DNA of 64,000 nucleotides from Chiloscyllium plagiosum. Taxonomy: Eukaryota. Shown here one piece after another: positions 16,655 through 58,380 of this stretch. Each line of letters starts with the position of its first letter. The first letter of the stretch is position 1. Both the position numbers and the translations under genes were made by a program. The notes under the pieces are model-generated. The model worked only from the letters and a program-made list of their open reading frames with translations, ran no database searches and had not been told where the DNA came from. Where the stretch lies: contig NC_057753.1 of the NCBI RefSeq assembly GCF_004010195.1, forward strand, positions 4,081,656-4,145,655, written 5' to 3'.

Positions 16655-17616
16655 TGATCTGTTTTGGGAGCACTGCTGTTTGTCATTTTTATAAATGACT
16701 TAGACGTAGGTATAAGTAGATGGATTAGTAAATTTGCAGATGACACTAAAGTCGGTGAAGTAGTGGAATGTTTGGAAGAATGTTACAGGTTGCGGGGGGA
16801 TTTGGATAAACTGCAGAATTGGGCTGAGAGGTGGCAAATGGAGTTCAATTCAGGTAAATGTGAGGTGATGCACTCTGGGAAGAATGACAGGAAGGCAGAT
16901 TACTGGGTCAATGGAACGATTCTTGATAGTGTCGATGTACAGAGGGATCTTGTAGGCCATGTCTCTAGATCTCTGAAATTTGCCACCCAGGTTGATAGTG
17001 CTGTTAAGAAGGCATCCGGTGTGTTAGGTTTTATTGGTAGAGGGATTGAGTTCCAGCGCTGCAACTATACAAAACGCTAGTGTGGCCACACTTGGAATAT
17101 TGTGAACAGTTCTGGTCGCCATATTTCGGGAAGGATGTGGAAGCATTGGAAAAGGTGCAGAGGAGGTTTACCAGGATGTTGACTGGTCTGGAGGGAAGGT
17201 CTTATGAGGAAAGGCTGAGAGACTTGGGTCAGTTCTCATTGGAAAGAAGAAGCTAAAAGGGGATTTGATAGAGACATACAAAATGATCAGAGGATTACAT
17301 AAGGTAGACAGTGGAAGTCTTTTTCCTGGGATGATGACGTTAGCTCGTATGAGGGGGCATAACTACAAATTGAGAGGTGATAGATTTAATACAGATATCA
17401 GAGGCAGGTTCTTTACTCAGAGGATGGTAAGGATGTGGAATGCCATACCTGCCAATGTAGTTAACTCAGTCGCATTAGGAAGATTTAAACAGTCCTTAGA
17501 TAAGCACACGGGTGATGATGGGACAGTGTAGGGGGACGAGCTGAGAATAGTTCACAGGTCAGTGAAACATCGAGGGCCGAAGGGTCTGTTTTGCACCGTA
17601 TTGTTCTATGTTCTAT
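16655..17616 (+). mobile_element. CR1 RT C-terminal half + 3' tail
   Basis: LLFVIFINDLD...ISKFADDTKV, WQMEFN, FFTQRMVRMWN; tail ttctatgttctat. Confidence 0.9.
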
Positions 17617-18680: not shown

Positions 18681-18856
18681 CATGCAGCAGGTTTATATGC
18701 ATTCATATGCCTACCCTGTAGCATTGAGCGACTAGAGCACTTGTACACTAAGGACTCTCTGATCTTCAGTAATGTTCAGAGTTCTTTCATTTATCATGCT
18801 TTTCCTTGTTTTTTATTTTCATCTGCCCATGTACATCAATTTACTTCCAATTTGAA

Positions 18857-18862
18857 TTTATT
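18857..18862 (-). terminator. Candidate polyadenylation signal AATAAA for gene A
   Basis: About 120 nt downstream of the stop; second candidate at 18812-18817. Motif only. Confidence 0.3.
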
Positions 18863-18983
18863 TGCCACTGACCAGAAAATCTGAGCAGCCTTTCTATGTC
18901 GTCCTGGCATTTCCCTCTTTAACATATAAAGCAAGTATACAGGTTGCAAAACGATTTACAGTTCTGGTTGGCTGTTATCGTTT

Positions 18984-19894
18984 TCATTTTTTAAACATTT
19001 CAGCAAATAAGTTCAATGGATATGTCACACCTTTTTTTATCTCATCTCTGATTTTACTCTGGGTCCCAGCATAAATAAACGGATTGATGCAGGAACTCAA
19101 TAACTGAAGCATGTATCCACTTTGTTGGACAATAAATATGGACTTACTGGCATCAGAAACAGAGGAAAACGGAATATTCGCAATTCGCACATAAATGATT
19201 GTGACAAAGTACAACAAATACAAAAGGATGAAGCTTCCCGAGATGCCAAAGAGTAAAACAATCGACTTTCTTCGCTTCTCCATCTCTGGATCACTCACAT
19301 TCTCTCCATTACTATGCATCCGGAGTCTCGTGCGGGCTCTATTGGCTGCAACAATATGTCTGACAGTCAAAGCATTAAGCAGTATAATCAGAATGAATGG
19401 AAGACACGGAGTTACAATGGAACGAATCCAGTCATAGGCAGCCCATTCTGGTGTTGTATAATATTCTATTTTATGAGAACAGAACCGGGGTGTATTATCG
19501 ATTATGTATACAGGTTCATATGCAAAATATGTGGAGATGTTTTTTAGGCAGGACAGTGCTGACACAATTCCGATCACCCACGATGCCACCTTCTCAGTGC
19601 AATATTTTAATTTCAACTTTTGGCAACAAATGGCCACAAATCGATCAAAAGTAAACGCGACTGTTAACCAGACAGAACTGTCAATGACTGCAAAATTTAT
19701 AGAATTGCGAACACTGCATACTGGTGTGAGAGATAGGAAACTCAATCGAAAATAAATGCCAGCAATCCGGTTTAATATCACGACTGTGACCATGACCAGG
19801 AGATCTGCCATTGCCATTGACACAAGGTAATATGTGATACATCTAGAGAGTCCACATTTTCTTCGGGATAGAATCACAATCACTGCCAGGTTAG
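18984..19894 (-). CDS. Orphan class A GPCR gene A, coding exon 2 (rest of TM1 to C-terminus; full protein 326 aa)
   Basis: Acceptor tttctctttattgcag|CTAAC (AG at 19896-19895). Open frame to stop at 18984; 70+911=981 nt, in frame. Motifs: MAMADLLV (TM2), TFDRFVAIC (DRY-like), TM3 and ECL2 Cys, NPFIY (NPxxY). Confidence 0.93.
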
Positions 19895-21036
19895 CTGCAA
19901 TAAAGAGAAAGATATTTATGAAGTTATTGTCATCGATCTCCTCAGAACAGTGAAAGGACTTTCAGCCCATTGAGTCTGCATTGCTAAACAAAACTTAATT
20001 ATTCAAATGTCATTTTCCAACACTTGATTCTTAGCTCGTAAGTGCACATCGTTTTTTTAATAAAAAATGTTAGGAGGCTGCCGCCCTTATAGGCAATGGA
20101 TTTTACATTCCTACCACCATGCTCGCCACTTTATCTGCCTGCCTTGTTGCATTAAGAGACAAGAGCACTTGTACCCTAAGGAGTCTCTGATATTCAGTAA
20201 TTCCCAGGGTTCTACCATTTATCATGCTTTCTCTTGTCTTGTATTTTCGTCTGCTCAAGTACATCAAATGACATGCGATTTTAATGTATTTACCACTGAC
20301 CAGAATATCTGACCTGTCTTTCTATGTTGTCCTATAATCATTTGGCATCTTCCTCACTATTTATGACACCATCAATTTTTGTATCATTGGTCAACTTGGT
20401 GACCGACAGTCCAAATTTCAGGTCTAAATCGTTTCCGGGTACCACAAACAGCAATCCCCCCCCCCCCCCACACACACACAGATGGTCAAGTAGCTCCACT
20501 GGACACAAGTTGCCAATCACAAACACAACCATCGAACACCATCCTTGGTTTCTTCCTTCTTAAGCCAATTTTGGATTCAATATCTAAACGTTTCATGGAT
20601 CCCTTGGGCTCTTGACTTTGCTTTCAGTCTACCATGTGGAATTTTATCAAGCGTCTTGCTTAAGTCCAGGGAGACTACAACGAATATGTGACCTTATCGA
20701 CACAACTGGTTGTCTCTTCACAAAAGTCAATCAAATTGATCAGACATGATCTCACTCAAAGAAAACCATGTTTGCTGTTCTTGATAAATCCACATCTTCC
20801 CAAGTACAGAGCAGGTATATCCCTCAGAATTGCTACTGATATTTCCACCGCACTGAGGGTAGACTGTTTGGCTTTCAGTTTTCTTGTTCGTACATTGCTC
20901 CTTTCTTGACTAATAATACGGCATTGGCTCTTATCCTGTCTTCTGACGGCTCTACTGTAGCCAGAGAAGACTTGCAAATTATGGCTAACGCCCCTATTTC
21001 TTCCTTTGGCGGATTCAATAGTCTGGATATATTTTA

Positions 21037-21255: not shown

Positions 21256-21513
21256 TTTAATTTGTGAACACTGACACAAAGTATGGATTTAGAACTCTCC
21301 CTGTGGCTTCCAGCTCCGTACAAAAAATTACAATTGTCTTCCATCGTGGGACATGTTCTTTCCCTCGTTATCATCTCATCTTTTATTTAATTTGTGAACA
21401 CTGACACAAAGTATGGATTTAGAACTCTCCCTATGGCTTCCAGCTCCGTACAAAAAATTACAATTGTCTTCCATAGTGGGACATGTTCTTTCCCTCGTTA
21501 TCATCTCATCTTT
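21256..21513. repeat. Tandem duplication, period 130 bp
   Basis: 21256-21383 and 21386-21513 match with 2 substitutions. Confidence 0.95.
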
Positions 21514-23365: not shown

Positions 23366-24135
23366 CTATTAGAATGGGAGATAGAACACAGAACATGGAA
23401 CAATACAGAGCAAAACAGGCCCTTCGGCCCTCGAATTTGCGCCGACTTGTGAACGGATCTAAGCCGATCCCCCTACACAATCCCATCATCAGCCATATAC
23501 TTATCCAAGGACTGTTTAAATGCCCTTAATGTGGCCGAGTTATCTACATTGGCAAGCAGGGCATTCCAAGCCTTTACCACTCTCTGAGTAAAGAACCTGC
23601 CTCTGGCAAGTGTCTTAAAAATTTCACCCCTTAATTTGCTGCTATGGCCCTCGTACAAGCCAACGTCATCATCCTAGGAAAAAGGCTCTCACTACCCACC
23701 CTATCTAATCCTCTGATCAACTTGTATGTCTCTATTAAATCCCCTCTTAGCTTTCTTCTCTCCATTGAGAACAGATCCAGGTCCCTCAGCCATTCCTCAT
23801 AAGACCTTGCCTCTAGACTAGGCAGCATCCTGGTAAATCTCCTCTGCATCTTTTCCAATGCTTCCACATCATTCCTGTAATTGGACGACCAGAACTGTAC
23901 ACAATATCCCACGTGAGGCTGCAATAGCGTTTTGTACAGTTGCAGCATGACATCACGTCTCTGGAACTCAGTCCCTCTACCCAGAAAACCTAACCCACTG
24001 TATGCCTTCTTCACAGCACTATGAACCTGGGTGACAACTTTCAGGGATGTATATACATGGACATCAAGATCCCTCTGCACATCGACACTACCAAGAATCT
24101 TTCCATTGATCCAATATTCTGCTTTCCTGTTATTC
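23366..24135 (-). mobile_element. CR1 3' fragment (same subfamily as 16655-17616)
   Basis: ORF 23631..24191 VQRDLDVHV...LYKTLLQPHVGYCVQFWS...RKLRGDLIETYK. Confidence 0.9.
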
Positions 24136-26404
24136 AAACAAGGATGAGCACAAGAATCTCTTGACTTCTGCAACTCGACCCTGGTGACCATTCGGGTCCA
24201 TTTTTGGGTGTTCCACCGTGAATTGACTGGATGATAGATGCGTTAGCCAGGAGCTGCAAGTGGACACAATAGCTGCACACATGCTGTGAAGACCATCACT
24301 TCTCATATTTACCACATAGCACAGGAGAATATCATGAATGCAAGCTCTCCTGCAGCGATTTACTTTAAGTCCACTCGAAAGGAGTAAATAAGAATATTAT
24401 GAAATTACTTCTCATGCTCTGTGTCCTTACGCCCTTACCGTACTGAATTTTCATTCAAATCACGAATCAACCCTCATGCCACTTCTTTGTGATGCCAATG
24501 CTCGATTTATCTTCAAAATGATCAGGCCCCTGAAGCTGCTGCTGTTAAACTAGAACTTCCCTATTTCTGCTCAGTTGAAGTTTTAGTGTTGCGCCTGGAT
24601 CCTGACCTCGGATCCTGGCTCGGTCTAAATGTTCAGCTGAACCTGAAGGATGGTACATGACAAACGATAAACCACAAAAACCTCATTAACTATGAACTAG
24701 TATAAAACACGTAAAGTCTGTTGTCGTTTTCACTGCATTTCCCAAAATCGCATAAATACAGTATTACCCTGCCATGCTCACTCAGGACGTGCTATTTTTA
24801 TTGCTTTCGTGAAAGTTGACATGGACAGAACATGATTTTGAGGTGCCGGTGTTGGACTGGGGTGAATAAAGTTAAGAATCACGCAACATCAGATTATAGT
24901 CCAACAGGTTTAGCTGGAAGCTCCAAAAGCTAGTGCTTCCAAATAAACCTGTTGGCCTATAACCTAGTGTTCTGTGATTTGTAATTTTGGACAGAACGTG
25001 TTGGTGATAAGAACACTGCTGAGTCGGCTTCAAAAAGCAGCCTCCCCACCACCCATACCCCCTTGCCCTGGATTTTTGCATAAAATTGAAAATTGTAGTC
25101 GTGAATCTAAGCTCAGAATACACATCCTTTACGCTATTAACAACTGTAGATTATCCCCTTCACTGTTCTCCAAGTCAATAGTAAAATATTTGGATGGCAT
25201 AACAAAGTAAACTGGTCTGATACAGTTGATGGAGGAGAAAAAAGAACAAACTAAAGGAAGTTAAGTGAAACAAAATCGAAAACATTGAAACCAAATAACT
25301 GTGAAGAAGCCACGCTTGCGAGCAGAAACTAAAAAAGGGGATAAGGTGTTTCTTTTCAATTAGCTAATGCGCAATTAACGTGCCTTTGAAAAGTCTGCAT
25401 TTTGCTCGCACAAGAAATGCCCTAAAGAGAAGGGGCATTAGTCTTCTTGCCCCTTTGAGGAAGATATATTTTTACGATACAATGGCAAGTCAAAATTCTT
25501 CAGCGGACCTGCAGCTTAAACCACAGATTAAAACTTTCGTTTATCATCATCGTCATAATTGCAATCCCTAATATTGCCCCTTCAATATATTGTTTATTTA
25601 ATTAAGTTCAGTTCAGCGTTATTAAAAGAAAAATAATCCTTTCAATGAACGAGCCATTTCAGGTAATCATTTTGTAACTGGGAAAATCAGTGGTGAAATG
25701 AATCTACCTATCCAAGCTAACTAAAATCCAACAGTGCACCCACCCGCGTTGGCAATAATAGTTTGATATTTCACCTGCTCTGAAATAATGCTGCTAGATC
25801 AGTGTCTCTGCACAGTTCAAATACAATGATGTCAAGGTATCTTATTGATTTTCCACCCAAAACATATTTCTTAAGAGTGCAATCGATTTGAAATTACACT
25901 GTGAGTGTAGTACCCAAGTCAAACACAGTAACAGTACTGACACAATAGAATTACTTCCAGATCGTTATTGGGCAAATGGTCGAGTTAAAACAATGAATGT
26001 AAGTCTGTTACAATAAGTTTGTCTAAATTTAACGGTGACCAATTCTACCGATAATATGAGAAACAAACAGCACATCAAGAGGTGAAATGACAATTCCAAA
26101 TAAGACAGGTTCCACCATTAATATCGCCAGATTATGTTCGTAGCTGAAATGCATTACCATGATACAATGTTGAATTAATACTGTTGCTGCTACTGTATAT
26201 TGTAAGTTATGATAAATAGCAAAGTTTTTTTTATTCCAGTGAAACGAAATGTCTTAAATTGGTGAGTCACAGCATTTTATTGAATACAATTGGAGACGGA
26301 AGAACTATAATATAGAGAAGAAGAGCAAAAGAAATATCTTCTGTAAATGTAAACTTGAAGTACATAGATACGAAATAATGACAACACTAATTTGAATAAT
26401 TTAC

Positions 26405-26474
26405 CTGGAACTCCGATAGCAGCTAGGATAGGATAGTAAATGGCAAACACCAGACCTATTGGTAGTCCATGCAT
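26405..26474 (-). CDS. Orphan class A GPCR gene A (GPR139/GPR142-like), coding exon 1 (MHGLPIGLVFAIYYPILAAIGVP + 1 nt)
   Basis: ATG at 26474, 70 nt, ends CCAG|GTAAAT (GT donor at 26404-26403). The phase-1 G joins CT at the start of exon 2 to give Ala, producing TM1 ...GVPANLAVIVIL. 19/23 aa identical to the exon at 58225-58294. Confidence 0.9.
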
Positions 26475-26524
26475 TTCTTGTCAGAAGCTTTGAGAGTGCT
26501 CTGCACTTTCCTGCAAAGTGCTTG

Positions 26525-26562
26525 CATTTGTACCTGATGTCAGGCCCCTGAGAGACAATTAG
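26525..26562 (-). promoter_or_regulatory. Putative proximal promoter cassette of gene A: homeodomain TAATTG + O/E(EBF)-like TCTCAGGGGC + CTGACA + TATA-like TACAAAT
   Basis: Minus strand reads ctTAATTG-like cTAATTGtcTCTCAGGGGcCTGACAtcaggTACAAATg; aligns without gaps to the gene B upstream cassette at nearly the same distance from the ATG. Confidence 0.5.
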
Positions 26563-26959
26563 TTAGTTTAAATTTTACAGGCACCGAATGTATTCTAATA
26601 ACAATTTCCAGCTGATGTGCACCTGAACTTTTGTTTTGGTGAGACTTTTCTTTTCATGGGATGTGACAGAAAATGCTAAAGGCAATTACAAATTGACCTT
26701 TGAAATATTCCAGCAACGCATGTTTATGAGAAATGACAGCAGCTTGGGTTTTGGACTTGTACCTAAGTACTATTGACTGAGCGTGATGCATTTTATAGGG
26801 AGAAATGCGGCCAATTTCTTCCCTCTAACCATTCGTCGCCATGTAAGGTCACCACGTCGGTGTGCTCTTGATTCAAACTCTACCTTGCTTCAAACAGTTC
26901 CCCTCAAAAACCCCACATACCCGGATCTCAGAATCCGTTTGCACTAATTCCACAGAATC

Positions 26960-40583: not shown

Positions 40584-41503
40584 TTAGTATTTTAGACACT
40601 TATAGAATCTAACAAAGAGACTTAGTGAATATTTCACTCCATTCTTTAATTCATCCCTGACTTTACCCTGTATTCCTGCATAAATAAAAGGGTTTATGCA
40701 AGAACTGAGCAACTGCAGCATAAATCCGCTTTCTTCCAGAATAAAGTTAGAATCATTGAAATTTGAACCTGAGAAGTAATTAATATCTGCAATTCGGACA
40801 AAGACAACTGTTGCAAAAAACAACAAATACAACAAGATGAAGCTCCCGGAGATGCTAAAGAGTAAAGCAATGGACTTCTTCCGCTTCTCGATCTCAGGGT
40901 CACTCTGATTCTTCACAGTCTTCTGAACCCAGAGCCTCTTGCGGGCTCTATTCGCTATTAGAATGTTTTTGATAGTGAGAGCATTGAGCAGTAATATTAG
41001 AACAAAGGGGAGACAAGGCGTTAAAATTGTAAGAATCCAGTCATAAGTGGCCCATACAAGTGACGTATAAAATGTTGATTTTATGCTGCAGAACCAAGGT
41101 ATGCTTTTGGCTATGTACACTGGTTCATAAATAAAATATAAGAATACATTAACCAAACTGCTCAGTGTGTAGACGACTGCGACCACGCGCACTGCCATTC
41201 TCTTGGTGCAATATTTAATTTTGAGCTTTTGACAACAAATGGCCACAAATCTGTCAAAGGTGAAAGCGACAGTTAACCATACTGACATGCTGAAAGTTCC
41301 ATAGTTCAGGACAGAACGAAGACTGCATAATGGCGTGATGGACAGGAAACTGATCGGAAAAAATATGCCAGCGATTCGGTTTAATATCACAGCGGTGGTA
41401 ATGACCAGGAGATCCGCCACTGCTATTGACACCAGGTAGTAAATGATGCATCCAGAAAGACCACATGTTTTTCGGTACAGGATTATGATCACTGCTAAGT
41501 TAG
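40584..41503 (-). CDS. Orphan class A GPCR gene B, coding exon 2 (full protein 329 aa)
   Basis: Acceptor tccttttctgttctag|CTAAC (AG at 41505-41504); 70+920=990 nt, in frame. IAVADLLV, TFDRFVAICCQKLK, NPFIY. Paralogue of gene A (211/326 identities by manual ungapped count). Confidence 0.93.
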
Positions 41504-42029: not shown

Positions 42030-42525
42030 GTTACTGTAATTGGAGTTCTGGTCACCGCATCATACGCAGGATACAGAAGCATTGGAAAGGGTGCAAAATA
42101 TGCTGTCTGGTATGGAGGGAAGGTCTTATGCGGAAAGCCTGAGGGTTTTGAGGCTGTTTCGTTCGAGATAAGAAGGTTATGTGGAGACTTAGTAGAGATA
42201 TACAACATGATCAGAGGAGTAGATAGGGTGGGCAGTGAGAACCTTTTTCTTCAGATGGTGATGACTCGCACGAGGAACATAGCTTTAAATTGAGGGGTAA
42301 CAGACATAGGACAGATGTCAGAGGTAGGTTCTTTACTCAAAGGGTAGTAAGGCGTGGAATGCCCTGCCTGTAACAGTCGTGGACTCTCCAACATAAAAGG
42401 ACATTTAAATGGTCATTGGGTAATTATGTGAATGATAATGGAATAGTGTAGGATAGATGTGTTTCAGATTGGTTTCACAGGTCGAGGACCGAAGGGCCTG
42501 TACCATGATATATGTTCTATGTTCT
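42030..42525 (+). mobile_element. CR1 3' fragment in gene B intron
   Basis: Similar to 17100-17616; tail atgttctatgttct. Confidence 0.8.
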
Positions 42526-42766
42526 GCCTTCTGTAGGTTACTCTGCAGACTTGTGAGCCACAACGATTCGGAAGAAACTTGTCTGTCACTAACGCTGAAA
42601 ATAAGGGTCTGAGAACAGGCACTGCACTGGAGTAAGTTCAGACGCCTATGAATGGATGCACTGACGAGCCATTGTCCGTGATGTGTAAATGTGTGGAATG
42701 TGTTGAGCAAATTTGTTAAGTTGCTCGATCAAATAAGCTCAAAAGATTGTGCGGCTGTGCAGATAT

Positions 42767-58224: not shown

Positions 58225-58294
58225 CTGGAACGCCAATAGCTGCGAGGACAGGGTAATAAATGGCAAACACCAGACCTGTTGGTACTGCGTGCAT
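58225..58294 (-). CDS. Orphan class A GPCR gene B, coding exon 1 (MHAVPTGLVFAIYYPVLAAIGVP + 1 nt)
   Basis: Read by eye, not in the ORF track. ATG at 58294, 70 nt, CCAG|GTAAAG donor; same length and phase as gene A exon 1. Confidence 0.88.
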
Positions 58295-58342
58295 TTCTGT
58301 CAGAAAATCTGGATGCATTCTGTTTAGAAATACATGTTGGAT

Positions 58343-58380
58343 CTATTTATAATGCGTGTCAGTCTCTTGGGAGTTAATTG
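58343..58380 (-). promoter_or_regulatory. Putative proximal promoter cassette of gene B: CAATTA + TCCCAAGAGA (O/E-like) + CTGACA + TATA box TATAAATAG
   Basis: Minus strand reads CAATTAacTCCCAAGAGACTGACAcgcatTATAAATAG; TATA box begins 57 nt upstream of the ATG. Confidence 0.6.

Follow-up and report, generated by a model that had tools for sequence, protein, structure and literature searches.

A probable promoter of OR-like design, probably kept by selection, before two tandem non-OR receptor genes

Two neighbouring receptor genes share a short cassette at a like distance from their start codons. Is this a leftover of gene duplication, or a promoter that selection has maintained? The window analysed here, 64 kb at its full length, is repeat-rich eukaryotic DNA that carries the two minus-strand genes, A and B, in tandem. 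They are two-exon class A GPCR paralogues, with predicted proteins of 326 aa (A) and 329 aa (B), and their coding exons lie as follows:

18984..19894, minus strand: second coding exon of gene A, Pfam 7tm_1
26405..26474, minus strand: first coding exon of gene A (70 nt), with a GT donor after it
40584..41503, minus strand: second coding exon of gene B, Pfam 7tm_1
58225..58294, minus strand: first coding exon of gene B (70 nt)

By family-specific Pfam domain, both receptors lie outside the OR, V1R/ORA and V2R/OlfC families: their exon-2 ORFs match 7tm_1 only, with 7tm_4, V1R and 7tm_3 absent (E up to 0.001). Their coding intron falls in the first helix, unlike in typical TAARs, and the GPR139-like label of shark genome annotations would presumably apply to them. 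Coding divergence between A and B amounts to a dN of 0.24 and a dS of 0.84, with 41/90 four-fold sites identical. Self-BLAST within the 64-kb window found neither a third paralogue nor a further copy of the cassette. A coding extension 5' of the ATGs was rejected, as the upstream frames of both genes contain stops. Gene B has an in-frame ATG at 58316-58318, 24 nt 5' of the common start; as an earlier start it was also rejected, having no equivalent in A.

Several repeats accompany the genes. A direct repeat pair (18702-18905 and 20130-20333; 204 bp, 82% identical) lies on either side of gene A exon 2, and could mark or promote exon-level rearrangement. The gene A intron contains a 130-bp tandem duplication (21256-21513, 98% identical). 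Related interspersed repeat fragments, which we take to be probably LINE-derived, occur inside and between the genes at 16882-17614, 23390-24135 and 42044-42532.

An earlier note had described the cassette as an ungapped 17/23 match between A and B at the same position upstream, and pairwise comparison of the upstream regions confirms this. The 23-mer starts at 26560 in gene A (ATG at 26474, minus strand) and at 58379 in gene B (ATG at 58294), that is, at -86 and -85 from the ATG. The further likenesses claimed there also hold. TACAAAT in A pairs with TATAAAT in B (beginning at 26532 and 58351), and the common end, TTCTGACA(A)GAAATG, occurs twice in the window, both times at the start codons (two matches in 0/100 shuffles). 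Upstream, TTTTACA, TTCTAA and CAGCT recur at identical offsets in both genes (-99, -119 and -135), with a chain score reached by 4/2000 GC-matched window segments. The CAGCT block of A forms a full E-box, CAGCTG, at 26609-26614, while that of B does not. The upstream features are:

26573..26613, plus strand: outer blocks TTTTACA, TTCTAA and CAGCT of gene A; offsets equal to those in B, constraint doubtful
26556..26561, minus strand: homeodomain-type hexamer TAATTG, gene A
26544..26553, minus strand: EBF(O/E)-like site TCTC-AG-GGGC, gene A; 2 mismatches to TCCC-NN-GGGA
26538..26543, minus strand: CTGACA, the same in A and B; longest stretch of the cassette without a mismatch
26526..26532, minus strand: TATA-like box TACAAAT, gene A; starts at -58
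26502..26503, minus strand: predicted start site, gene A; the A of the CA common with B is 26502
26475..26501, minus strand: predicted short 5' leader, gene A; similar to a consensus built in each run from 16-18 paralogue contigs
58375..58380, minus strand: hexamer CAATTA, gene B; TAATTG on the opposite strand
58363..58372, minus strand: EBF-like site TCCC-AA-GAGA, gene B; 1 mismatch
58345..58351, minus strand: TATA box TATAAAT, gene B; starts at -57
58321, minus strand: predicted start site, gene B; A of the CA common with A

Dinucleotide shuffles reached 17/23 in 27/1000 cases at most 30 nt off the diagonal and in 44/300 over all diagonals, and a 1500 x 1500 bp comparison of A and B held three more such windows off the diagonal. 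It is therefore the position of the match, not its identity, that makes it notable. Since the two cassettes are homologous, they count as one observation rather than two.

Read as motifs, the cassette is TAATTG-TC-TCTC-AG-GGGC in A and CAATTA-AC-TCCC-AA-GAGA in B. The TAATT core does lie on opposite strands in the two genes, as had been noted; each hexamer is one change away from TAATTA, at opposite ends, which accounts for the flip. The EBF-like site is also present, although the TCYC-NN-GRG first proposed is best set in another register, as TCYC-NN-GRGM, 2 bp past the homeodomain hexamer in both genes. The two EBF-like sites deviate from TCCC-NN-GGGA at different positions. If TAATTA and TCCC-NN-GGGA are taken, as we assume, to be the homeodomain and EBF consensus motifs, each of the 14 specified positions is canonical in at least one gene, and nine are canonical in both. 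None of 4000 column shuffles (spacers 0-5, both orders) reached 14/14, in a test for which the motifs were picked post hoc, with the sequence already seen, and only the homeodomain/EBF pair was scored. Hexamer and EBF-like site combine, at spacers 0-5 and with no more than 2 mismatches, only twice in the 64 kb, namely in the cassettes of A and B. The window totals are 69 hexamers and 183 EBF-like sites with 2 mismatches or fewer, so the EBF-like site of gene A alone is unremarkable. Judged by these comparisons of sequence, the homeodomain-plus-EBF reading is supported over chance.

How close is this arrangement to known promoters? O/E and homeodomain sites are over-represented in mouse OR promoters (excerpts of PMC3247239 and PMC5318403), of which 246/314 have a conserved O/E site and among which TATA boxes are enriched (excerpts of PMC3247239). 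The likeness extends to a clustered GPCR family and to TATA in a subset and, if the predicted start sites hold, would include homeodomain and O/E sites at most 200 bp from the start (PMC3247239 and PMC5318403, as excerpted). In A and B a homeodomain site likewise stands beside an O/E-like site, with 1 (B) and 2 (A) mismatches to the consensus and a distance from the start that is set only by the predicted start site. In contrast to mammalian OR genes, A and B contain a coding intron and encode receptors that Pfam does not class as OR-type, and their predicted leader is about 28 nt long, without a non-coding exon. A and B have their two sites juxtaposed, unlike most mouse OR promoters (PMC5608512, excerpted).

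Juxtaposed Lhx2 and Ebf sites are instead the mark of the Greek Island composite of mouse OR enhancers (excerpts of PMC5608512 and PMC7804114). The order is the same and the letters are similar: in A and B, too, a homeodomain site is directly followed by an EBF-like site, and in the Sfaktiria EMSA probe an imperfect EBF site comes after TAATTG (PMC5608512, in part). The spacer differs, being 2 bp in A and B and 1 bp in mouse (PMC11643329, in part), and the cassette thus resembles the Greek Island motif without being one. EMSA of the composite, in the excerpts of PMC5608512, assayed spacer changes of +2 bp and more, not +1. The setting differs as well: the cassette sits in a putative core promoter, 77-87 bp before the ATG, whereas the mouse composite belongs to intergenic enhancers.

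These differences leave some room for other readers of a constrained promoter, such as a TGACA-binding TALE protein or other homeodomain proteins, with an incidental likeness to EBF sites. The longest perfectly shared run of the cassette is CTGACA, whose TGACA we take to resemble a MEIS/TGIF-type core; the EBF-like site of gene A has two mismatches, and the spacer is unlike that of the mouse composite. Against such readers, all eight positions of the canonical EBF site are covered by A or B, and we consider them improbable. EBF and homeodomain factors are themselves active in many tissues.

Whether the upstream block has been selected is a separate question. The earlier note had argued for selection because the cassette is better conserved than the spacers around it, and this argument turns out to be weak. 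Identity alone is no proof of selection, as the neutral baseline at four-fold sites spans 32% to 75%; pairwise identity across the upstream block (55/110) falls inside this range. Under a neutral model without indels, the probability that 285 bp contain a 17/23 window is 0.28 if identity is 45.6%, rising to 0.50 for 49% and 0.87 for 55%. Four-fold sites are also more alike toward the 5' end of the coding sequence: 9/12 are identical in exon 1, compared with 13/20 over the opening 150 nt of exon 2 and 18/57 beyond them (exon 1 against the 31/77 of exon 2, Fisher P = 0.03). These points speak for residual homology, that is, a duplication remnant or an old gene conversion at the 5' end, in which the motifs are chance likenesses.

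Other lines of evidence, from flanks, indels, orthologue and motifs, nevertheless make the claim of selection probable. The first is that only the 5' flank, of four non-coding flanks, still aligns between A and B. Its local alignment score was reached by 4/1000 shuffles, against 616/1000 for the donor-side intron, 634/1000 for the acceptor-side intron and 984/1000 for the 3' flank. The 5' flank keeps one diagonal over 100 nt (12, 8, 9, 13 and 12 matches per 20), while in the intron flank beside exon 1 the alignment ends after 20 nt. As the four-fold gradient continues into exon 2 beyond this unalignable intron, one DNA conversion tract would not produce it. Indels are also scarce, with about two single-base shifts in 135 bp where roughly 6-9 would be expected (a rough estimate, P 0.006-0.08).

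The orthologue of organism C, compared using contigs from runs X17 and X19 of one study, provides a footprint that is independent of conversion between paralogues. Among the differences listed (40 of 81), its flank background is 38 substitutions in 445 bp. Across 26479-26580 (102 bp) there are at least two substitutions among those listed, compared with 8.7 expected (P = 0.006), in a comparison that carries the caveat that the upstream block has no CpG. Cassette and TATA-like box together have 0/36 among the substitutions listed (P = 0.04), and the differences listed for 26479-26672 include zero indels. An extra contig at about 26551-26584 halves the support there and could mask differences; restricting the comparison to 26479-26550 gives 2/72 among those listed (P = 0.049; Fisher 0.06). 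This contig covers the end of the cassette that holds the homeodomain site, at single-copy depth and in all three DNA runs, and may be a further promoter copy or a chance AT-rich match. The outer blocks fare differently, with at least five substitutions in 26585-26605 among those listed. One of these falls within TTCTAA, making the outer blocks doubtful as functional sites and lending residual homology a further point. Weighing both sides, we think that residual homology is an unlikely explanation of the whole, and that the upstream block is probably under selection, as far as can be judged from the alignments.

The proximal part of the block holds the predicted start site. In both genes, 30 nt separate the first T of the TATA-like box from the A of the common CA, which is the standard TATA-initiator spacing. 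The TACA of gene A is probably not an assembly error, since organism C has no listed substitution there. Gene A also contains an out-of-frame upstream ATG at 26525-26527 (-53), which overlaps the TATA-like box and precedes the predicted start site. Single-cell run X22, of which about 6% was read, gave 0 reads on 26050-26880. Very unlikely is a rival in which the conserved end is the 3' splice site (…ctgacag/aaATG) of a 5' UTR intron and the true promoter lies elsewhere: B has a plausible CAG acceptor right at aaATG, AG is present in both genes and non-coding first exons are frequent in receptor genes as a matter of general knowledge, but the leaders are pyrimidine-poor (14/29 and 15/29) with 4 and 2 other AGs, whereas pyrimidines make up 20/29 and 25/29 at the real exon-2 acceptors, where other AGs are absent, real acceptor flanks are unalignable between A and B while the upstream flank aligns over at least 100 bp, and the TATA and EBF-like sites would be left without explanation.

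The leader appears to be common to more genes than A and B. Three DNA runs gave 108, 105 and 83 contigs at 80% likeness or more, with 74, 82 and 62 of them below 90% alike. The depth pile-up is confined to the exon-1 bins, and the exon 1 region (26386-26478) draws most contigs. With 83-108 contigs per run, mostly of exon 1 only, the receptor family looks large, although this is a contig count that includes fragments, alleles and pseudogenes, not a gene count. Of these contigs, 17, 18 and 16 per run break off at 26478. Their consensus matches gene A across 26480-26509 in 21, 20 and 21 of 30 letters (compared by eye) and gene B in 15/30; agreement inside each consensus is only 0.52-0.53, and the display ends about 30 nt short of the cassette. 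It is this match to gene A that extends the leader beyond the pair.

Layout, fixed spacing and lower divergence are the observed facts behind a promoter reading, and we consider it quite probable that the upstream block is a promoter. We also lean, with somewhat less confidence, towards a compact promoter of OR-like build (homeodomain, 2 bp, EBF, TATA) kept by selection. Under this model, about 105 bp 5' of the ATG would serve as the promoter of each receptor gene, derived from gene duplication and maintained by selection. A homeodomain protein, perhaps of LHX2/EMX2 type, would bind the TAATT hexamer and a dimer, presumably of EBF (O/E), the site 2 bp downstream. TBP would then occupy the TATA-like box, 11 bp beyond the EBF-like site. 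Transcription would start about 28 nt 5' of the ATG, so that the leader would be very short and unspliced. The cell type in which the homeodomain/EBF pair may drive expression would be neuronal and possibly chemosensory.

That the A and B family is expressed in olfactory neurons, or has an olfactory function, is a tentative suggestion by analogy, and we regard it as possible but rather doubtful. Equally speculative is a broader reading, in which a large orphan set of class A receptors in cartilaginous fishes, with dozens to more than 100 copies, forms an unrecognised chemosensory family using the olfactory homeodomain/EBF code of mammalian ORs. The ligands of such a family might be amino acids. 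GPR139, a two-exon gene, responds to L-Trp and L-Phe (PMC7318219, in part). Like the GPR139/GPR142 group, A and B are class A receptors with two exons, a trait that is not specific to this group; GPR139 is a single, highly conserved, brain-expressed gene, in contrast to these fast-diverging tandem paralogues with apparently many relatives. A literature search (Creative Commons papers and bioRxiv) found no description of this shark receptor family or its promoter, and such an expansion goes unmentioned in the excerpts of PMC6504862, PMC8455134 and PMC12294341. Surveys of olfaction in cartilaginous fishes have counted the four known receptor families, with few genes; in the catshark nose ORs were not detected and V2Rs dominate (both in excerpts of PMC10116579). 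The brain-plus-olfactory library of a catshark atlas has zero GPCRs among its 50 most abundant and specific genes (PMC11979771, in part). This argues mildly against strong nasal expression across the family, although sparse receptors would escape such a list.

The cassette is real, and it is probably a selected promoter of OR-like design placed before non-OR receptors. If the olfactory reading is true, it would help to explain why sharks smell so keenly with very few OR, TAAR and V1R genes, and the juxtaposed Lhx2/Ebf grammar would date to early jawed vertebrates. A GPCR family that is large, non-canonical and equipped with an OR-style promoter would be a testable candidate for a missing repertoire. 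Even if the family is not olfactory, the cassette supplies a compact promoter model for a family of receptors undescribed in the literature searched.
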